From NCBI RefSeq assembly GCF_001677475.2, contig NZ_CP015229.1: DNA of 64,000 nucleotides. The stretch is one strand, 5' to 3'. Each line of letters opens with the position of its first letter. Positions within the stretch are counted from its first letter, which is position 1. The notes beneath the pieces are model-generated. The model was given only the letters and a program-made list of their open reading frames with translations, was not told where the DNA came from and searched no databases. The DNA comes from Escherichia coli (GTDB taxonomy: Bacteria > Pseudomonadota > Gammaproteobacteria > Enterobacterales > Enterobacteriaceae). A program made the translations under genes and the position numbers. This document shows positions 29,581-38,925 of this stretch, piece after piece.

Positions 29581-30375
29581 TTAGTTTCGCAAGTAGATCC
29601 ATTCACCATTCTCTTGTGTCCATAATTCAGGATGGTTTGCTGGCGTTAGATGCATACGATCACTCCTTATGTCTCGGTCCTGCGGCACTCGCTCGAAACC
29701 CAAACCCGAGTAGATTGCTGCTGAACTTGATAAGGAACGCAGACCAATTTTCAAATCATGGGGTAAATCAGAATACGCGTTTAGCAATGCAGCAATGATG
29801 AATCCGAGGGCATTAGAAACGCCTGTAACAGTGCGAAGTTGGTCGATATAAAGATCGATTGTTGGTAGTTCAGATGACCAGCAATTAGGCATTTGGGCAG
29901 GAAGGGTTACAACGTATCCTATCGTTTGGCCGGTATAGTCTGGAGTACCATAACCTGGACCCAAAACAACCTCGTGTATTGTGTATTTACTGTTGGGTTC
30001 GAAGGATTCGACATCTTGCAATAAATATTTCAGTTCTGCGGTTAACCTCGCACCCGCGTAAGCTTTATTGTATTTCTGGGCGTGAATATTATCTAATGTA
30101 GCTTCATGGTTCCATCCAAAAGAATTATCACCATTCATTGTTATTCCATCGTAAGCATTACACCTCGTCGCTAACTTATTGAATGCTTGCCAGCCTGAGA
30201 GATCTAGTTTGTGGATCTCAACAGTATGTCTGCCATCGCAATTATGGTCTCTTCCACGATTTGAAAGTAATGTAGCGCGTGCGTATTGATGAAATTTTAA
30301 TTTTACTGGTTTGTCGGTGGACGAAAAACGGGGTGAATATGCAGGAAATGAATAAATAGTGGTTGGTAATGTCAT
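29581..30375 (-). CDS. yjfZ: uncharacterized protein YjfZ
   Basis: 264-aa ORF convergent with rplI, matching K-12 position and length from memory; no motif recognised. Confidence 0.6.
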   Translation of the reverse strand: MTLPTTIYSFPAYSPRFSSTDKPVKLKFHQYARATLLSNRGRDHNCDGRHTVEIHKLDLSGWQAFNKLATRCNAYDGITMNGDNSFGWNHEATLDNIHAQKYNKAYAGARLTAELKYLLQDVESFEPNSKYTIHEVVLGPGYGTPDYTGQTIGYVVTLPAQMPNCWSSELPTIDLYIDQLRTVTGVSNALGFIIAALLNAYSDLPHDLKIGLRSLSSSAAIYSGLGFERVPQDRDIRSDRMHLTPANHPELWTQENGEWIYLRN

Positions 30376-30645
30376 TGTATCGTTGCCTGTTTAATGTTTT
30401 TATAAATATCTCAGCTGAATGTTTACAGAATAAAGAATCGATATTAATAAAAATAAGTTTGTTTTCTGAAGTAGTGAAAATAGCGGATGGTGAAAGATAT
30501 TAATATCAAAAATCGCTCATTGTGGATATAACGATGCAGCAGGGAGGGGGGATATGATTGACAACGCGTTGGTAAGCGAGGTTCGATAACTCAAGCTTCT
30601 TTAAAAACGCCATAACCTCAATTATAGCGTTTTTATTTAAAATAA

Positions 30646-31923
30646 TTAGTGGGTAGCTAACTGTACTTGTGGTTCTTCATCTTTAACTTTGATAAGCGTC
30701 CACAACGCAATAGCACCAATAATGTCAAAGAAAGCCAGGGCAATAAAGAACGGCGCGAAGCCGATAATGTGAACGAATGCCCCGATGAACAGGTTGAAAA
30801 TCAACTGACCGCTCCACGCACAGGCTCCTGCCATACCCACTGCGGTAGCTACTTCGTCCTTTTTGAACAGATCGCCACCCAGAGTTGCTGCTACAGTAGA
30901 AAGACATTGATGCGAGAACGCGCCAATACTAATCAGTAATACGGCAATGTAGGGATTTTCGACAATACTCACCAGACCAATCGTCATCATAATGACGGCT
31001 GCAATAGTGAAGGTAATTCTTCGTGAGTTAATTAAACTCACGCCGCGATCGTGGAAGAACTTCGCGACAAAACCACTGGCTAAACAGCCGAGATCGCCCA
31101 GCAGGAAAGGCAGCCAGACGAACATGGCAATTTCTTTCAGGCTAAAATGCAGCGTTTCGACGAAGAAAATCGGCACCCAGAAGTTAATGGTTCCCCATGC
31201 CGGGTCTGCGAGAAAACGCGCGATGCCAATCCCCCAGAAATTACGTTGGCTGAGGATATGCTTGATTGACGTTTTTTCTTTCTTATCTGTTTTAAGATGC
31301 TGTTCTTGCCCTGATTCAATATAGTGGCGCTCTTCATCAGAAAGGCGTTTGGCATCTTTCGGATCTTTATAACAAAAGAACCAAAATAAAGCCGCGAGCA
31401 AAGCAAGGCTACCTGAAACAATAAACGCAAATTGCCAGCTATGAAACATAATGCACCAGGCAATCAACGGTGGAGCAAGCATCGCGCCGAGTGAGGTGCC
31501 CATATTGAAAACACCTGTCGCCACGCCACGCTCTTTTGCCGGAAACCATGTTGATGCGGTTTTTACACCTGCCGGAATTGCCGACGCTTCGCTGAAACCC
31601 ATCAGGGCGCGCATAAATGCCAGACCTGACCATGTTCCGGTTAGTGCATGGCCCATTGTCGCCAGGCCCCAAATTGCGGCACATATCGCAAAACTTAACT
31701 TCAGACCTACGGTATCAATAAAGAAGCCCATTACCGGTTGCCCTAATGTATAGGCCAACTGGAATGCACTGACAATCCATGAATATTGTTCTTTGGTTAT
31801 TCCGGTTGTCTCCATAATCGTTGGAGCCGCAATACCTAACGCCGTTCTGTCCAGATAATTGATTACAGTGATAAAGCATACGAGGGCAATCATATGCCAT
31901 CGATAATTCTTTATTTTATTCAT
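30646..31923 (-). CDS. MFS transporter, anion:cation symporter (ACS) type (hexuronate/galactonate/tartrate-permease-like)
   Basis: 425 aa, about 12 hydrophobic segments, N-terminal INYLDRTALGIAAP motif; AAGG SD 7 nt upstream. Confidence 0.75.
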   Translation of the reverse strand: MNKIKNYRWHMIALVCFITVINYLDRTALGIAAPTIMETTGITKEQYSWIVSAFQLAYTLGQPVMGFFIDTVGLKLSFAICAAIWGLATMGHALTGTWSGLAFMRALMGFSEASAIPAGVKTASTWFPAKERGVATGVFNMGTSLGAMLAPPLIAWCIMFHSWQFAFIVSGSLALLAALFWFFCYKDPKDAKRLSDEERHYIESGQEQHLKTDKKEKTSIKHILSQRNFWGIGIARFLADPAWGTINFWVPIFFVETLHFSLKEIAMFVWLPFLLGDLGCLASGFVAKFFHDRGVSLINSRRITFTIAAVIMMTIGLVSIVENPYIAVLLISIGAFSHQCLSTVAATLGGDLFKKDEVATAVGMAGACAWSGQLIFNLFIGAFVHIIGFAPFFIALAFFDIIGAIALWTLIKVKDEEPQVQLATH

Positions 31924-32015
31924 TTTTAAACCTTTTAATTATATTAATAAACCCTGGTTGTTGGTATTTCCATGTAATAGGCAATAAAAATCAGGTACAG
32001 AGAAAATATTGAAAA

Positions 32016-34088
32016 TTATTGTGTGTAAATGTCTCCCTTTAAAAAGTCTGGCCAGTTTTTTTCAAAGTAAATACCGTTAATACACGGTTGCATACGTAAA
32101 GACTTTACTTCGGTAATAAAAGAACCTTGCGAATATTGAATTGTTAATTTGTGATTTTTATCTTCAGCGAGTTCAGAGCGAAAACGCCATTCTTCTTTTA
32201 CGCCGCGACGAGTTTGTGGTAGGCATTTGCCTTGTGGATCAATAACCATCCGCGCCCCACGACTGCCGCCACCAGCATCAATATAATGCGTTAATTGTGT
32301 TAATACCGCGGCAGAAGTCAGCGCCATATGCCGCCACATAAACAGCTCGGAAACTTCACCCACATGTTTGATTGCCAATCCATGCCGTTGGACAAATTCG
32401 TTCAATAGCAGGGCATCGCGAGTGGCGCGTCGGACTTTATCGGCATGGCAAATAAATCCCGCATAGTCAGACATTCGTGCCTGAATTTTTTCTCTCACAA
32501 CCGACAACGGCATCCCGGTCCCGTTATCGTGCGCCTGAGTAATGATCTCTCTTATAGAAGCCAGTGCCGGAGCTGCCAGCTGTGCTATATCTCCATCAAT
32601 ATTCCGCTTTTGCGTGCAACCAATAAAACGTGCCAGACGCACGGCAAAAACCTGCCCGGCATTCAATGCCGCACCACCAGGGCGAGTGACGCCGTGTGTG
32701 CCAGCAACTTCCCCCACTGCAAAACAACCGGGCAGAGATGTTTGTCCCCAGATATCCACTTCAATGCCGCCATTCATATGCTGATTATTCATGGCAAACT
32801 GCAATGGCTGCGTGGTGAGATCGTAACCGTGCATCTTATACAGCGAGATAGACAGCGGATTCATTCGTTGCAGTCGTTCGATGGGCGATGGCGCCAGGGC
32901 GTCGTTATTTTCCAGATACGCGCGAACGTCGTCGTCCAGTCGTTCTAATGAGAATGGCAGGTCACCCGGCACAGGTTCAGGATTGCGATTGAAATCCATA
33001 AATACCTGACGCCCTGATTGCTGCTCTTGCGCCACCGCCATATCTAACAAGCTGGAGCCAAAATCCATTACCCGCGTGGCGTGGAACGGCCACTGATAGC
33101 CTTTACGGAAGATGTTTGAAGCCAGCTCCTGGGTGGTGCGATAGTAATCTGCGAGGAAGTTATACTCGTTGCCCTCGGCATCCACGGAATAGATATATGG
33201 GATCACTTGTACATAGGTGCCGGACAAATTCCACGGAAACGTGCTGCGCGGCGTGCCTATACCAAACTGGCTTTCGGTCAGATTAGTTAGTGTCAGGCCT
33301 TCCTCCAGCGCCAGCCCCAGCGAGCCAAAACATTTGTGTGGGTACACACTGTCGCGATAAAGCTCGCCCGGCCCGCCTGTTGCCAGTACCACATTGGGCG
33401 CAGTCACAATTGCCAGCCCCCACGGGTTATGGGCGCGGGAACCGGTTGCGAGGATAGCCCCGGCCACACGATCTTCGCCGTTTTCACCGCGTTGATGCAG
33501 CAGTTTAATCACCGTTGCACTGGTCAACAGTGGGATGGCGAGGCGCTGCACTTCTTCGAGCAATACTTTCACCATCAGACGAGAAGTGCGCGGCCCACAG
33601 GAGGTTGCGCGTCCGGCTTCGTCATGGTCGGTCTGATAACGGAGAATTGCACCATAGCGATCTTCCGGTAATTCCAGACCGAGATATTGCAGCCCGCCAA
33701 GGGTATGTAGGGAACCGACCGCTTCGACATACGCCGTGTCGTGATCCATCGCACCGCCGCTCGCCAGTGCTTCAGCAAGTTTTGCGAAGTTATCGCCGTT
33801 GCCCGCCGTTGCGGCGGTAAACAGCGTCTGTTTATCGGAACCGGAGCAGGCCGATGTTCCCATGTATAACCCGGCGGTGGCGATTAGCACATTTTGCTGG
33901 CGACGTTTCAGTTCAACCGCCGCACGTAATCCTGCCGCGCCGCTACCAACGACCAGAGCATCTGTTTGCCAGAGCGGGTAATCAACACCGTCCACCGTGA
34001 CAATTGACGTTGGCTCTGCTGACACAAAACCCTTCGGGAAAGTGACGTGCGTCAGCGCATCGAGGATGGCGTCATCAGTCTGGCTCAT
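32016..34088 (-). CDS. FAD-dependent oxidoreductase, fumarate-reductase/succinate-dehydrogenase flavoprotein-like, with extra C-terminal region
   Basis: 690 aa; N-terminal dinucleotide fold VVGSGAAGLRAAVEL; start overlaps upstream gene stop (ATGA). Confidence 0.7.
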   Translation of the reverse strand: MSQTDDAILDALTHVTFPKGFVSAEPTSIVTVDGVDYPLWQTDALVVGSGAAGLRAAVELKRRQQNVLIATAGLYMGTSACSGSDKQTLFTAATAGNGDNFAKLAEALASGGAMDHDTAYVEAVGSLHTLGGLQYLGLELPEDRYGAILRYQTDHDEAGRATSCGPRTSRLMVKVLLEEVQRLAIPLLTSATVIKLLHQRGENGEDRVAGAILATGSRAHNPWGLAIVTAPNVVLATGGPGELYRDSVYPHKCFGSLGLALEEGLTLTNLTESQFGIGTPRSTFPWNLSGTYVQVIPYIYSVDAEGNEYNFLADYYRTTQELASNIFRKGYQWPFHATRVMDFGSSLLDMAVAQEQQSGRQVFMDFNRNPEPVPGDLPFSLERLDDDVRAYLENNDALAPSPIERLQRMNPLSISLYKMHGYDLTTQPLQFAMNNQHMNGGIEVDIWGQTSLPGCFAVGEVAGTHGVTRPGGAALNAGQVFAVRLARFIGCTQKRNIDGDIAQLAAPALASIREIITQAHDNGTGMPLSVVREKIQARMSDYAGFICHADKVRRATRDALLLNEFVQRHGLAIKHVGEVSELFMWRHMALTSAAVLTQLTHYIDAGGGSRGARMVIDPQGKCLPQTRRGVKEEWRFRSELAEDKNHKLTIQYSQGSFITEVKSLRMQPCINGIYFEKNWPDFLKGDIYTQ

Positions 34089-35626
34089 GCGTCCTCCATT
34101 GGCGTAAACAGGCTACTTTCCATCAGGCGCGGCTGGTTGATAATTGGACGGAAAGCCATGAACGGCAGAATGTCGCGGTCAATCTCCACGCCCGGCGCGA
34201 TTTCAATTAATTCAACGCCTTCTGCCGTTAACTGAAACACCGCGCGTTCAGTGATATACAACACTTCCTGACCGCTGTGCTGTGCGTAGGCGGCGCTAAA
34301 AGTGATTTTTTCCACCTGAGTAACCAGTTTAGGGATTTGACCTGACTGGGCGATATGCAAGCCATCTGGCGTTACATCAATCTTGCTGCCTTTGGCGTCG
34401 AACGTGCCGCAGAACACCACCTTACGGGCGTTTTGCGCAATTTCGAGAAATCCGCCGGGGCCAATCAGATTGCCATTGAGATGGGAGACGTTGACGTTAC
34501 CGTACTGATCCATCTCTCCCATGCCGAGGAAGGTGATATCGATCCCTCCGCCACTGTAGAACTCAAATTGATCGAGTGATGGAATAATGGCATCGGCGTT
34601 GCGGGCGCAGCCGAAAAACGCATCATCCAGCATCATACCGTTATGCACGCCTTGCTCGACGCTCAGCCATAAACTTTGGTAAGGCACGCCTTCGCGCAGC
34701 GCTACTCCTGGAATGCCGCCGGGAATACCAAAGCCAAAGTTGGTTGAAGCGCCAGCTACCAGTTCGCGTGCTGCCCGACGGGCAATCAGGCGACGTACCG
34801 GATGACTAACCAGTTCAATAGCGTCGTTAGAACTCAGACGGCGATGTTGGCCGCTGATGGTCAGGTCGTAACCGCCAAGATAGGTTTGTGGCTGTTCGCG
34901 GTGTTCAACGATGCCATCAACCAGAATGCCCGGTAATTTGACTCGGCGTGGTTCAATCGCGCCAGCTTCCAGCACATCGCGTACCTGTACAAACACTTTG
35001 CCGCCGCTGTTGTGTGCTGCCAGCGCCATGGAATAGCTATCCATATCAATCGCTTCTTCTTCAAGGCTGACGTTGCCCCGAGGATCGGCATAAGTGCCAC
35101 GCAAAATCGCGTAATCGACTTTGAAAGGGCGATAACGAAGTTTGGTTTCACCGTCGATTTCAATCAGTTCTACCAGGTCGTCGGTAGTGCATTCATTCGA
35201 CTTACCGCCGCCATTGCGTGGATCAACAAACGATCCCAGCCCAACGTGGGTAAAAAGCCCCGGACGTCCGGCGCCGATCTCCCGTAGCAGTGCCTGAATC
35301 ACGCCACCAGGAAAACAATAGGCTTCAATCGCGTTATTTTTTACCAGCGCCTGCATTTTGGGTGACCAGGTAAAGTGTCCGGCAATAATGCGTTTGAGCA
35401 TTTCAGCATGAGCGAAGCGGTTCGTGCCTTTGCAGTCGCGATCGCCAATGCCCAGCGAGTGGATTAATGTCAGATCGCGCGGGTGTCCGGTTTGCAGGAA
35501 GCGCGCTTCAATGGCTGCCAGAATATGGTCGGCTTCCACCATGCCGCCGCCGTTACCGCTAATGGCAATGGTTGCGCCATCCTGAATTTGCGCCGCCAGT
35601 GCCTCGGCGGTTGTTATCTTACGCAT
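34085..35626 (-). CDS. CoA-transferase, family I-like (YdiF/propionate-CoA-transferase-like)
   Basis: 513 aa; overall resemblance to two-domain family I CoA-transferases; assignment by eye, needs HMM confirmation. Confidence 0.6.
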   Translation of the reverse strand: MRKITTAEALAAQIQDGATIAISGNGGGMVEADHILAAIEARFLQTGHPRDLTLIHSLGIGDRDCKGTNRFAHAEMLKRIIAGHFTWSPKMQALVKNNAIEAYCFPGGVIQALLREIGAGRPGLFTHVGLGSFVDPRNGGGKSNECTTDDLVELIEIDGETKLRYRPFKVDYAILRGTYADPRGNVSLEEEAIDMDSYSMALAAHNSGGKVFVQVRDVLEAGAIEPRRVKLPGILVDGIVEHREQPQTYLGGYDLTISGQHRRLSSNDAIELVSHPVRRLIARRAARELVAGASTNFGFGIPGGIPGVALREGVPYQSLWLSVEQGVHNGMMLDDAFFGCARNADAIIPSLDQFEFYSGGGIDITFLGMGEMDQYGNVNVSHLNGNLIGPGGFLEIAQNARKVVFCGTFDAKGSKIDVTPDGLHIAQSGQIPKLVTQVEKITFSAAYAQHSGQEVLYITERAVFQLTAEGVELIEIAPGVEIDRDILPFMAFRPIINQPRLMESSLFTPMEDA

Positions 35627-35635
35627 ACAATTTCC

Positions 35636-36412
35636 TTAGTGATTATGGAAGCTCACGCTACTTTTTTCGGCAAATGCCTGCGTCGCCTGCTGGCAATCCT
35701 GAGTGGCGGACATTAATCCAGCCAGTAACTGGTGTGGGTATTCAGCGTGTTTATTTTCCAGTGCCAGAATCAGCTGCTTAATATGCGCCAGTGCCACCGG
35801 ACCACATTTTTCCAGCTGCGCTAACTGGTTCGCCATCCAGCTTTCCACCTGTTCTTTTTCTACTACTTCATCAATTAAATTCGCCGCCTGGGCTTCATGC
35901 GCCGTCAGACGTTTACCTAGCATCAGCATCTGGCGACCGACCACTGGGCCGACCTGATTAATCACGCGTTCAATGCCCATCCAGCCAGGCACCATGCCGA
36001 GCATGACTTCCGGGTTAGAAAATTTCGCGCTGGGGCGAGCGATTCGAATATCGCAGCACAAGGCAAGTTCAATACCGCCGCCGATGGTATGACCGTTGAG
36101 ATTCGCAACCGTTAATTGCGGTAAATTGCGCAGGCGATTAAAAACGTCATTGCCGCGTTTAATCCATTTTCTGCCCATATCTAATGGCGAATAGGCCGAC
36201 CACGATTTAATATCACCGCCCGCACAAAAGAATTTATCGCCGATTGCCGTTAATTCGACTAATCGTAATGTGGTGTCGTTTTCAATTTCATTTAAATAAT
36301 GGTCGAGAGATTCAATCATCTCTTCGTTAATAGCATGACATTTCTCTTCACGGTTCAACGTCAGGCGGCAGGAAGCCGCCGCTCTGCTGAACAGAACGGG
36401 TTGGTCACTCAT
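35636..36412 (-). CDS. enoyl-CoA hydratase/isomerase (crotonase fold)
   Basis: 258 aa; crotonase signatures FCAGGDIKSW and GGGIELALCCD, plus PE motif (SNPEVMLGMVPG). Confidence 0.8.
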   Translation of the reverse strand: MSDQPVLFSRAAASCRLTLNREEKCHAINEEMIESLDHYLNEIENDTTLRLVELTAIGDKFFCAGGDIKSWSAYSPLDMGRKWIKRGNDVFNRLRNLPQLTVANLNGHTIGGGIELALCCDIRIARPSAKFSNPEVMLGMVPGWMGIERVINQVGPVVGRQMLMLGKRLTAHEAQAANLIDEVVEKEQVESWMANQLAQLEKCGPVALAHIKQLILALENKHAEYPHQLLAGLMSATQDCQQATQAFAEKSSVSFHNH

Positions 36413-36421
36413 GATTATTCC

Positions 36422-37264
36422 TTAGCAATAATTCGCGATGCGATCGACGCTAATATCCAGCGTGTTGTTAATATCTTTCTGCCACCAGTACGGTGAGAAT
36501 ATTTCCAGTTCAATAGCGCCATTAAATCCGGCGTTTTCAACCAGTCGACGAATTGACGGAATATTTATCACGCCATCTCCCGGCATTCCCCGGTCATTGA
36601 CCAGATCGGTGGTCGGCACTAACCAGTCGGAAACATGAAACGCGAGAATACGTTTTCCGGCGCGCAGGAGCTGGCTGGCCAGATCCGGATCCCACCAGAC
36701 ATGGTAAACATCCACAGCCACGCCGAGGCCAAATTCGCCATCGGGATCGAGTTCATCACACCAGTCCAGCGCCTGGCGTAACGTGCACAGGCAAGAGCGA
36801 TCGGCGGCGGTCATTGGGTGCAGTGGCTCCAGCGCAATCGGCACGCCAACGTCTTTCGAATGTGGCAGTAACTGGCGTATCCCTTGTTTCACCTGTTCCC
36901 GTGCTTCATACAGATCTTTTGTGCCCTGCGGTAACCCGCCAACCACCTGCATATAACAGGCGGCGTTCAGCACCGCTGCGTCGTCCAGCGCCCGGCGGTT
37001 ATCATCAATTGCCAGTTTGCGTTCCGCCAGCGTCGGCGCGGTGTAGTAGGTGCTACGGCATAAACCGGAAACGCGCATGTTATTGACGGCAAGCTGGCGG
37101 GCGATCTGCTGAAGATCTTCACCCTGCAACTCTCTGCGCCAGGGGGCGATCGCACCGATACCGCGTGCGGCACAGGCATCAATAATGGCGGGTAGCGGCG
37201 TTTTATAGCCCAGTGTTGCGGTATTGATACTGAATAAATCCGGGCGTTGTAACAGATCTCTCAT
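36422..37264 (-). CDS. xylose-isomerase-like TIM-barrel protein (sugar phosphate isomerase/epimerase or dehydratase family)
   Basis: 280 aa; resemblance to AP-endonuclease-2/xylose-isomerase-like TIM barrels by eye; needs HMM confirmation. Confidence 0.55.
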   Translation of the reverse strand: MRDLLQRPDLFSINTATLGYKTPLPAIIDACAARGIGAIAPWRRELQGEDLQQIARQLAVNNMRVSGLCRSTYYTAPTLAERKLAIDDNRRALDDAAVLNAACYMQVVGGLPQGTKDLYEAREQVKQGIRQLLPHSKDVGVPIALEPLHPMTAADRSCLCTLRQALDWCDELDPDGEFGLGVAVDVYHVWWDPDLASQLLRAGKRILAFHVSDWLVPTTDLVNDRGMPGDGVINIPSIRRLVENAGFNGAIELEIFSPYWWQKDINNTLDISVDRIANYC

Positions 37265-37273
37265 GATTCAGCC

Positions 37274-38065
37274 TCAGAAGCGCGGCATACTTAAGCCGCC
37301 GTCGATGGCGACCGCCTGACCACAGGTGTAAATCAGTTTACCTTCCGCCATCGCGCGGACGGTGGAGGCAATATCAGCCGGATAACCCCAACGTCCCCAC
37401 GGCACCAGACCTTTGGCAATCAGTTCGTCGTAATAAGCCGTTGCTGGAATAGTCATATCGGTTTTGATGAGACCAGGGCGCACTTCATAGACGCCAATTT
37501 GTTCGTTGCAAAGGCGAGCAGCAAACAGACGAGCAGCGGCAGAAACGGCGGTTTTGGCAATTGTGTATTCGCCGCGATTCATCGCCAGCATGATGGCGTT
37601 GATGGAACTGACAAAAATAATTGAGCGGTGCGGGAATTCTGTTTCTGGTTTTGGCTGTGCGAGCAGACGTTTACTGAATGCCTGTGCAAGGAAGAACGGT
37701 GCGCGGGTGTTAATGGCAATATTTTGGTCGAAGCTGTCTGGTTCCAGGTCGAGAAGGTCACCGCGTTTTTTCACTGAAATGCCTGCGTTGTTGAGCAGGC
37801 AGTCCAGACGTCCCCACTGGTTTTGCGCTGCGTCGAGCATCTCTTCATGCAGGGAGAGATCGCCAACATCGGCAGGGAAGCAAATCACTTCCACGCCTTC
37901 CGCCAGACATTCTTGTTGTGTGACATGTAATTTTTCAACGCTATCGGCATCCGGACGATCATTAATCAGCAGATTAAATCCGCCACGCGCAAGCTCCAGC
38001 GCACAGCCCTTTCCAATACCACGAGCGGCTCCGGTAATCACGGCAACAGGACGAGTGGATTTCAT
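37274..38065 (-). CDS. short-chain dehydrogenase/reductase (SDR)
   Basis: 263 aa; TGAARGIGKG cofactor motif, NNAG, catalytic Ser and YxxxK (YTIAK). Confidence 0.85.
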   Translation of the reverse strand: MKSTRPVAVITGAARGIGKGCALELARGGFNLLINDRPDADSVEKLHVTQQECLAEGVEVICFPADVGDLSLHEEMLDAAQNQWGRLDCLLNNAGISVKKRGDLLDLEPDSFDQNIAINTRAPFFLAQAFSKRLLAQPKPETEFPHRSIIFVSSINAIMLAMNRGEYTIAKTAVSAAARLFAARLCNEQIGVYEVRPGLIKTDMTIPATAYYDELIAKGLVPWGRWGYPADIASTVRAMAEGKLIYTCGQAVAIDGGLSMPRF

Positions 38066-38133
38066 ACAATAGCTCTCTTTTTTTGAATTTTGTTTCCTTA
38101 GTGATGATTAGCTTGCGACTGGAGGATAAAAAG

Positions 38134-38155
38134 ATCAACCATCTAGTTGGTTGAT
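38134..38155. promoter_or_regulatory. candidate TetR-family operator (perfect 8-6-8 palindrome)
   Basis: ATCAACCA-tctagt-TGGTTGAT in the 212-bp divergent intergenic region between the SDR operon and the TetR gene. Confidence 0.45.
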
Positions 38156-38277
38156 ATGCGATGACGATCACAGGACATTTGATAACCTGATGAAAGTACA
38201 AGTTTTTGCCCTTTTTTCTGAAGCTGAAATCAAATCAGGTTATGATAGTCACCACGAAGAGGTCGTGGGGAAGCGTT

Positions 38278-38925
38278 ATGTATATTGATACCAGCAACGT
38301 ACAGAGCCTGAAGGAAAAGCTGCTGTTATGCGCGGTTAATGAATTTGCCGAATATGGTTATGAAGGGGCCAGGGTCGATAATATTGTTAAGTCTGCGGGG
38401 TGTAGTAAACAGACGGTTTATCACCACTTTGGTAATAAAGAAAATTTATTTATTGAAGTACTGGAATATACCTGGAACGATATTCGAAAAAAAGAAAAGG
38501 CCCTTGATTTCTCAGATCTTCCGCCACAAAAAGCCATTGAGAAAATTATTGATTTTACATGGGATTATTATATTGCTAATCCCTGGTTTTTAAAAATTGT
38601 GCATAGTGAAAATCAAAGTAAAGGTGTGCATTATGCAAAATCACAGCGTCTCTTAGAAATTAACCATGCGCACTTGCAGTTAATGGAATCCTTATTGGAG
38701 GAAGGGAAGAAACACAATATTTTTAAGCCAGATATCGACCCATTGCAGGTGAATATTAATATTGCTGCGCTTGGGGGATATTATTTGATCAACCAGCATA
38801 CGCTTGGCCTGGTTTATCACATCAGTATGGTTTCACCCCAGGCACTGGAAGCCAGACGTAAGGTCATCAAAGAGACGCTCCTTAGCTGGCTTTTGGTTGA
38901 CCCCTCATCTACCGCGCACGAATAA
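38278..38925 (+). CDS. TetR/AcrR-family transcriptional regulator
   Basis: 215 aa from ATG 38278 (GGGGAAG SD upstream); N-terminal [31 protein letters not shown]; track ORF is N-extended. Confidence 0.8.

Follow-up and report, generated by a model that had tools for sequence, protein, structure and literature searches.

The window analysed here, 64,000 nucleotides of the Escherichia coli chromosome (contig NZ_CP015229.1, assembly GCF_001677475.2), carries between yjfZ and ytfB an island without counterpart in E. coli K-12. The island holds a minus-strand operon of six genes, transcribed from 38065 to 30646 in the order short-chain dehydrogenase/reductase (SDR), TIM barrel, crotonase, CoA-transferase, flavoprotein and MFS transporter. 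We found that the flavoprotein has the fold of FrdA and SdhA and retains the residues of their carboxylate clamp, with an invariant serine at the position of their catalytic arginine, and that the conserved partners of its homologues are SDR, TIM-barrel and Gfo/Idh/MocA proteins, enzymes of the sugar or cyclitol type, rather than CoA enzymes. On these grounds we tentatively interpret the locus as a TetR-repressed catabolic operon for a hydroxylated carboxylic acid. The operon occurs in about one third of complete E. coli genomes, including that of the uropathogen CFT073, and its absence from K-12 helps to explain why it has not been studied. Database entries for E. coli contain the exact proteins of the window, under names that are generic. 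The locus is an authentic, intact and widely distributed operon, less a surprise than an instructive gap in annotation.

A first-pass annotation of the sequence had proposed that three open reading frames at 32016-36412 form an enoate reductase module. Their coordinates (32016-34088, 34085-35626 and 35636-36412, all on the minus strand) and identities were right. As a unit the trio did not hold, since it is the middle of a tightly packed six-gene operon that also includes the SDR and TIM-barrel genes. The features of the locus are as follows.

30646..31923, minus strand: MFS transporter of the anion:cation symporter (ACS) type, 425 residues; last gene of the operon
32016..34088, minus strand: FAD_binding_2 flavoprotein of the SdhA/FrdA/NadB fold, uncharacterised subfamily, 690 residues, cytoplasmic (Pfam, AlphaFold2, Foldseek, hhalign)
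34085..35626, minus strand: family I CoA-transferase, fused alpha/beta, YdiF type, 513 residues (PDB 2AHU match)
35636..36412, minus strand: crotonase-fold enoyl-CoA hydratase, 258 residues (PDB 5ZAI and 5Z7R matches; Glu115, Glu135)
36422..37264, minus strand: xylose-isomerase-like TIM barrel (AP_endonuc_2) of the SMc04130 family, 280 residues (PDB 3JU2/3QC0)
37274..38065, minus strand: SDR, 263 residues (NF009386); first gene of the operon
38134..38155, no strand: palindrome of 22 bp, candidate TetR operator (inverted-repeat search)
38206..38925, plus strand: TetR/AcrR-family regulator, divergent from the operon (weak NCBIfam TetR-family matches)

The stop of the CoA-transferase gene and the start of the flavoprotein gene overlap by 4 nt, the other enzyme genes are separated by gaps of 9 nt, and the MFS gene follows after a gap of 92 nt. 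The 4-nt overlap and the 9-nt spacers indicate co-translation. All six open reading frames are intact, and both CoA enzymes, transferase and hydratase, have their catalytic residues.

The flavoprotein and its active site

The flavoprotein carries the motif VVGSGAAGLRAAVEL at residues 45-59, and the sole Pfam domain seen in it was FAD_binding_2 (PF00890) over residues 43-475 (E 2e-28). Neither a signal peptide nor an FMN_bind or cytochrome domain was found in the protein. We built an AlphaFold2 model on 53 family members (pLDDT 93, pTM 0.94), for which the best folds in the PDB were FrdA/SdhA (Foldseek E 1e-31, about 17% identity; TM 0.8 on FrdA), followed by APS/PAPS reductases and NadB. Alignment of the family with E. 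coli FrdA by hhalign gave a probability of 99.4 (E 4e-21). The N-terminal FAD fold of the fumarate reductase superfamily, which the first-pass annotation had recognised and proposed to examine by structure prediction and fold search of the 690-residue protein, is thus supported by Pfam, Foldseek and hhalign alike. No curated family was reached, the NCBIfam matches (TfrA, NadB, SdhA/FrdA) lying four- to tenfold under their cut-offs. The proposal of an enoate reductase would have been undone by an ordinary L-aspartate oxidase or tricarballylate dehydrogenase, and the flavoprotein is neither. Identity with NadB was rejected at 99-107 bits against cut-offs of 450-640, with Ser at the position of R290 and Gly at that of H244, and E. 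coli nadB is located elsewhere in the genome. TcuA was rejected as well, with no such model among the 25 best NCBIfam matches and no tcuB- or tcuC-like genes at the locus. KstD was absent from the PDB sequence matches and from the top 50 Foldseek matches. The family comprises 418 clusters at 50% identity (E<=1e-30), none of them characterised, and ranges over Enterobacterales, Rhizobiales, Rhodobacterales, Planctomycetota, Lentisphaerota, clostridia, spirochaetes and an Asgard archaeon. Foldseek against AFDB50 returned only unnamed "FAD-binding proteins".

The active site was examined with the motif scheme of Bertsova et al. (bioRxiv 10.1101/2022.01.20.477176), according to which the catalytic arginine is conserved in all characterised fumarate, urocanate, methacrylate and acrylate reductases. 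Motif I, which clamps the carboxylate, is retained: H437 and R469, invariant in 53 family sequences, correspond to H355/R390 of FrdA, H351/R386 of NadB and His504/Arg544 of Fcc3. The catalytic-acid arginine itself (R287 in FrdA, R402 in Fcc3, R290 in NadB) aligns with the invariant S345/S346 of a "GSS" motif, and the family alignment holds no invariant arginine between residues 170 and 405. Furthermore, an invariant G276 replaces the second-carboxylate histidine of motif II (FrdA H232, NadB H244), the TEGCRGEGG segment of FrdA with the motif II threonine T244 and the proton-path residues E245 and R248 is replaced by (F/R)WNLSGTY, and the motif GSDKQT stands in place of the covalent-FAD histidine. 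GSDKQT, WNLSG and KGYQWP are invariant motifs specific to the family. The protein is no ordinary fumarate reductase, and its active site departs from the rules by which the substrates of fumarate-reductase-like enzymes are predicted. The flavoprotein stands for a large uncharacterised family. It is nevertheless a variant within a well-known fold, and the evidence so far does not make the locus a categorical novelty.

The last ~100 residues of the protein had been described as encoded by AT-rich DNA and devoid of a recognisable motif. We found the AT-rich DNA to cover the last ~60 codons only (residues 631-690; GC 0.33-0.34 compared with 0.47-0.66 upstream), and the alignments place GGGSRG, at residues 606-611, where FrdA and NadB have their ESRGAH motif. 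What is left of the tail aligns loosely with the C-terminal domain of FrdA, and conservation across the family extends over the full length of the tail, with E676 invariant and F675 and W679 nearly so. When the C-terminal 95 residues alone were used in a fold search, nothing in the PDB matched (best E 1.5), which we attribute to the small size and divergence of this segment. Judged by these alignments, the C-terminus is a diverged SdhA/FrdA C-terminal part, and a novel domain, considered at first, was withdrawn in view of the ESRG motif and the loose match to FrdA. On either side of the MFS gene lies a stretch of sharply AT-rich DNA (GC 0.29-0.34), one at window positions 30250-30700, the intergenic region between yjfZ and the MFS gene, the other at 31750-32200, the spacer between the MFS and flavoprotein genes together with the end of the latter.

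Conserved neighbours and partner enzymes

We compared 90 homologous loci, counting neighbours within 7 kb of the flavoprotein gene, and divided them into branch A (at least 44% identity to the window flavoprotein; 49 loci, E. coli included) and branch B (below 44%; 41 loci). Branch A loci most often hold genes for Gfo/Idh/MocA proteins (24), GMC oxidoreductases (19), SDRs (15), TIM barrels (15) and TetR regulators (10), with a CoA-transferase in 4 and a crotonase in 5. None of the 49 has an old yellow enzyme (OYE), FMN_bind, cytochrome or Fe-S partner nearby. In branch B the neighbours are SDR (24 of 41), OYE (18), KDPG-aldolase-like (14) and KDG-kinase-like (12) genes. Six of these OYE genes abut or overlap the flavoprotein gene, 11 more lie within a few kb, and one distant family member (P0148) is a natural OYE-flavoprotein fusion. 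The lack of a reductant partner in branch A suggests the dehydrogenase direction, whereas the pairing and fusion with OYE in branch B suggest the reductase direction.

The order of genes is informative in the nearest relatives. Brenneria has a TetR gene divergent from SDR, TIM barrel, flavoprotein and an MFS gene of the aromatic-acid type (AAHS), and Succinatimonas-like contigs have TetR, SDR, flavoprotein, TIM barrel and TRAP. In Pseudescherichia, Phytobacter and Mangrovibacter a TetR gene diverges from SDR, Gfo/Idh/MocA, TIM barrel, MFS and flavoprotein, without CoA-transferase and crotonase. A betaproteobacterium has Gfo/Idh/MocA, TIM barrel, SDR and flavoprotein, and a Lentisphaeria genome TIM barrel, Gfo/Idh/MocA, SDR and flavoprotein. 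The transporters of the nearest relatives are all of organic-anion types (ACS-MFS, AAHS-MFS, TRAP), and the Gfo/Idh/MocA neighbours of the homologues match the levoglucosan dehydrogenase and IolG models far under the cut-offs. A CoA-transferase or crotonase was found near the flavoprotein in only about 5 of the 90 loci. CoA-linked variants do occur in a betaproteobacterium (enoyl-CoA hydratase, TRAP, MaoC, acyl-CoA dehydrogenase, EtfBA, TIM barrel, flavoprotein), in Desulfobacterales (two SDRs, MaoC, CoA-transferase, acyl-CoA dehydrogenase, flavoprotein) and in Devosia (CoA-transferase, enoyl-CoA hydratase and aldehyde dehydrogenase beside LacI, Gfo/Idh/MocA, flavoprotein and PfkB). On the evidence of gene neighbourhoods, the conserved unit is an SDR, a TIM barrel, the flavoprotein and an organic-anion transporter under a TetR repressor. 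Since the conserved partners are SDR, TIM-barrel and Gfo/Idh/MocA proteins rather than CoA enzymes, the trio at 32016-36412 is not the functional unit.

Besides P0148, flavoproteins fused or translationally coupled to OYE (Oxidored_FMN) were seen at further distant loci (L006, L074, L086, L091 and L092). In Phycisphaerae the OYE itself carries a fused GltD-like NAD(P)H domain, and its gene lies beside genes for a BNR_4 protein and for KDG-kinase-like and KDPG-aldolase-like proteins.

Among the partner enzymes, the SDR passes the NCBIfam model NF009386 (419 bits, cut-off 250), which bears only the generic name "3-ketoacyl-ACP reductase", and its nearest PDB entries, 4DA9 and 4ONE, are both uncharacterised. 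The TIM barrel matches PDB 3JU2/3QC0 (E 3e-86; 1e-112 with the family profile), neither of which has a known function. With the family profile its nearest characterised relative is the inosose isomerase IolI (2e-17); ketose 3-epimerases come next (~1e-7). An identity as dehydroshikimate dehydratase was not supported, as QuiC1 was matched by the profile only (E 1e-3) and not by the single sequence. The transporter matches NCBIfam TIGR00893, the D-galactonate transporter subfamily (E 6e-94), under its cut-off and is called "MFS transporter" in E. coli annotation.

The CoA-transferase aligns over its full length with YdiF (PDB 2AHU; residues 6-508 with 17-518, E 8e-114). YdiF, an acetate/short-chain acyl-CoA:acetoacetate CoA-transferase (PDB 2AHU/2AHV), has the same fused alpha/beta architecture, catalytic glutamate and GGF motif, although the two are paralogues, not orthologues, and YdiF sits in another operon. 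Glu324 of the window enzyme, in SVEQG, aligns with YdiF Glu333, in TVETG, which from the YdiF structures we take to be the catalytic residue that forms the enzyme-CoA thioester, and the GPGGF motif is present. A CoA-transferase lacking its catalytic glutamate would have spoken against the first proposal for the trio; with Glu324 in place, this is not the case. FadX was the only curated equivalog matched, at 382 bits against a cut-off of 750. The crotonase resembles short-chain enoyl-CoA hydratases (E 1e-39 to 1e-26), its best PDB matches being 3-hydroxypropionyl-CoA dehydratase 5ZAI (E 3e-39) and crotonase 5Z7R. The catalytic glutamates of rat enoyl-CoA hydratase are Glu144 and Glu164. In the window enzyme Glu115 (GGGIELAL) and Glu135 (NPEV), likewise 20 residues apart, align with the equivalents in 5ZAI and 5Z7R. 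No curated hydratase family was reached (best NCBIfam match 149.5 bits, cut-off 394).

The likely start of the regulator gene is the ATG at 38278, giving 215 residues as in E. coli annotation, and the best-matching complete E. coli genome (L001) has a TetR/AcrR gene here. Between the divergent SDR and TetR genes lies a near-perfect palindrome of 22 bp, ATCAACCATCT/AGTTGGTTGAT, at 38134-38155, which recurs at the equivalent position of the locus in Mangrovibacter, E. albertii and E. coli and is a good candidate for the TetR operator. The terminator scan flagged the same palindrome as a hairpin with a T-run on the minus strand. Matches in the promoter and terminator scans were no more numerous than in shuffled controls.

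Possible pathways and related systems

What is shown here comprises the gene identities, the catalytic residues in the two CoA enzymes, the structure of the operon, the fold and active-site residues of the flavoprotein and the neighbourhoods. From these we infer a provisional set of pathway steps, the most economical we can propose. The MFS symporter would import the acid, the SDR would convert a secondary alcohol to a ketone, and the IolI-like metal TIM barrel would isomerise, epimerise or beta-eliminate adjacent to this ketone. The flavoprotein would grip the free carboxylate through His437 and Arg469 and carry out a two-electron C-C/C=C step, either desaturation or saturation, using non-covalent FAD and an acid/base other than the arginine of fumarate reductase. 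Its substrate is most likely the free acid and not an acyl-CoA. The SDR, TIM barrel and flavoprotein would constitute an ancient core, and the YdiF-type CoA-transferase and the enoyl-CoA hydratase a later addition in the Escherichia lineage, the sister operon of Pseudescherichia, Phytobacter and Mangrovibacter having a Gfo/Idh/MocA gene between the SDR and TIM-barrel genes instead. The added pair may hydrate or dehydrate the resulting enoate or beta-hydroxy acid as its CoA thioester, with CoA perhaps recycled as in CaiB/CaiD. In favour of this scheme we count the invariant His/Arg clamp together with the replaced capping-domain residues, the recurrent and independent CoA-linked variants in the betaproteobacterium, Desulfobacterales and Devosia, the operon packing, the conserved gene order, the conservation of the core, the organic-anion transporters and the conserved palindrome. 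Once its substrate is identified, the operon would provide a further pathway, for a nutrient or as an electron sink, by which E. coli lineages of the gut and of extra-intestinal sites differ, and would define new chemistry for a very well-known fold.

Several points weigh against this scheme. The order of its enzymatic steps is drawn only from family chemistry. The operon holds no thiolase, lyase or kinase, so that the exit to central metabolism is left unexplained, and no electron donor or acceptor for the flavoprotein is encoded at the E. coli locus. Moreover, the presence of Gfo/Idh/MocA in the operon slot that holds the CoA-transferase and hydratase genes in Escherichia may be a coincidence, and the substrates of branch A homologues may differ from those of branch B (36-60% identity). 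Literature searches (yjfZ/ytfB, SMc04130, CFT073 tags, quinate and Klebsiella fitness) found no functional study of the operon.

Comparison with known systems shows partial likeness only. With FrdA, SdhA and NadB the flavoprotein has in common the four-part fold, the dinucleotide-binding motif, the His/Arg pair and the ESRG-type motif, whereas the covalent-FAD histidine, H232, TEGCRGEGG, R287 and the Fe-S partner of FrdA/SdhA are lacking. The soluble NADH:fumarate, acrylate and cinnamate reductases (Klebsiella pneumoniae FRD, Vibrio harveyi ARD, V. ruber Crd) have the same FAD_binding_2 module, and their OYE plus FAD_binding_2 make-up is mirrored in the adjacent or fused OYE of the distant homologues. 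They keep, however, the catalytic arginine and FMN_bind with covalent FMN, both of which the window family lacks, and the E. coli operon has no OYE. The carnitine operon caiTABCDE likewise combines a transporter, a CoA-transferase, a crotonase and a flavin oxidoreductase in a catalytic CoA cycle and is comparable in the way it works, although CaiB belongs to transferase family III, CaiA to the acyl-CoA dehydrogenases, and the operon has neither SDR nor TIM barrel. We know of no homology between the two operons beyond the crotonase fold. IolI is the nearest characterised relative of the TIM barrel, and the oxidise-then-eliminate pathways for levoglucosan (LgdA/LgdB1) and inositol (IolG/IolE) pair Gfo/Idh/MocA proteins with a TIM barrel. 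These pathways differ in having no SdhA-fold flavoprotein, and the transporters here are for anions. The acyl-CoA deoxyribonate pathway of Klebsiella michiganensis was rejected because its gene set is a CoA synthetase, a hydroxyacyl-CoA dehydrogenase, a thiolase and a glycerate kinase. The quinate-induced lig1/lig2 cluster of Pseudomonas putida has a roughly similar make-up and is noted as a lead only, the homology of its "FAD-binding oxidoreductases" being unverified.

Rather unlikely, in our judgement, is an oxidative route resembling beta-oxidation, in which the CoA-transferase would activate the acid, the flavoprotein would replace acyl-CoA dehydrogenase in making an enoyl compound, the crotonase would hydrate it, the SDR would give the 3-ketoacyl-CoA and housekeeping thiolases would cleave this product. 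All activities of beta-oxidation bar thiolase can be assigned to operon genes, the SDR passes a model named for 3-ketoacyl reductase (NF009386), the CoA-transferase is of the acetate/3-ketoacid type, and the missing reductant partner in E. coli fits a dehydrogenase. The corresponding CFT073 genes c5298-c5303 have moreover been labelled "3-ketoacid metabolism" (PMC2831201). Such a route leaves the TIM barrel without a role, and many loci keep the SDR and the flavoprotein side by side although no CoA enzyme is encoded nearby. A free carboxylate is also what the preserved His/Arg clamp suggests. Furthermore, no SdhA-fold enzyme is to our knowledge active on acyl-CoA.

The reductive module of the first-pass annotation seems to us improbable. 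There the CoA-transferase would activate a hydroxy acid, the crotonase would dehydrate it and the flavoprotein would reduce the C=C bond as an electron sink, an enoyl-CoA being formed or the enoate released, in the manner of the acrylate, caffeate or carnitine pathways. The FrdA/SdhA fold would agree with this, as would the best solved relative of the hydratase, a 3-hydroxypropionyl-CoA dehydratase, and the occurrence of the flavoprotein family in strict anaerobes. An OYE within 7 kb in 18 of 41 branch B loci and the P0148 fusion also recall the NADH:fumarate and acrylate reductases. What argues against it is that the arginine of all characterised enoate reductases is an invariant Ser and the motif II His a Gly, that none of the 49 branch A loci offers an OYE, FMN_bind, cytochrome or Fe-S partner, that CoA enzymes accompany the flavoprotein so rarely, and that the SDR and TIM barrel are left unexplained. 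Of the original idea, redox chemistry at a C-C/C=C bond near a carboxylate remains plausible, but the residue-level definition of enoate reductases fails with Ser for Arg. An enoyl-CoA-type reductive pathway is not favoured, and the serine, the absence of an electron-input partner and the CoA enzymes in only about 5 of 90 loci make an enoyl-CoA substrate of the flavoprotein unlikely.

We give still less weight to the idea that the flavoprotein represents a new functional class within the SdhA fold, Ser-containing and Arg-less in its active site, that saturates or desaturates the ring of keto-cyclitol carboxylates, hydroaromatic acids of plants and diet derived from quinate or shikimate. In such a pathway the ketone would come from the SDR, and isomerisation or dehydration of it would fall to the IolI-like TIM barrel. 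The CoA-transferase and hydratase would then be additions made in E. coli B2, Klebsiella and Salmonella to take the product further. The hints come from the aromatic-acid-type and TRAP transporters of the nearest relatives, the IolI-like TIM barrel with its faint kinship to dehydroshikimate dehydratase, the IolG-like Gfo/Idh/MocA neighbours and the quinate-induced cluster of P. putida, whose homology is unverified.

Distribution, loss from K-12 and allelic variation

The island was found in 1659 of 5426 complete E. coli genomes (~31%), with identity to the window allele of up to ~95% and always with generic annotation. Its gene order is the same in E. coli, including CFT073, and in E. albertii, and the arrangement is also kept in E. 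marmotae-like alleles. Klebsiella and Salmonella have close homologues of the flavoprotein. In the window the flanks are ulaEF, yjfY, rpsF-priB-rpsR-rplI and yjfZ on one side and ytfB, fklB and cycA on the other, and these chromosomal flanks are 98% identical to K-12. K-12 MG1655 lacks the whole operon (window 30544-38523 against 2588-2694 of its locus, L087) and retains two remnants: from the TetR gene its 3' part, now the ytfA pseudogene, and from the SDR gene ~100 bp of its 5' end, with 78% identity. Because K-12 keeps the ytfA and SDR remnants, the locus is ancestral and was deleted there, not gained by the window strain.

In CFT073 the island stands directly after rplI and corresponds to c5298-c5303, as judged by position and gene count and not by sequence. 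These genes were listed in 2010 as "SAC 18, 3-ketoacid metabolism", an uncharacterised gene set (PMC2831201). Between rplI and the island of this strain (L093, 45028-46791) a helix-turn-helix gene and a frameshifted hipA-like toxin gene replace yjfZ.

Identity to the best complete E. coli genome, L001, is mosaic and varies from 87% to 99% over window 30400-38800. The MFS gene and the AT-rich 3' end of the flavoprotein gene reach 99%, positions 33400-34000, in the 5' part of the latter gene, only 87-88%, and the rest 90-98%. Given flanks that are 98% identical to K-12, this mosaic suggests recombination between divergent island alleles. Absence of the operon from ~69% of complete E. coli genomes, its deletion from K-12, the mosaic identity and the closest non-Escherichia operons, which have no CoA-transferase and hydratase genes, could also mean that there is no single pathway, these two genes having been inserted into an older SDR-TIM-flavoprotein operon for an unrelated purpose or the operon being in decay; we regard this as very unlikely in view of six intact open reading frames with their catalytic residues, the spacing that indicates co-translation, the arrangement kept across Escherichia alleles with flavoprotein homologues in Klebsiella and Salmonella, and the recurrence of CoA enzymes beside homologues in three other phyla or classes.

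In some E. coli records the CoA-transferase (PF01144) and the flavoprotein are joined in one protein (P0008, 1078 residues; P0029, 1043 residues), probably by a frameshift or read-through at the 4-nt overlap of the two genes.

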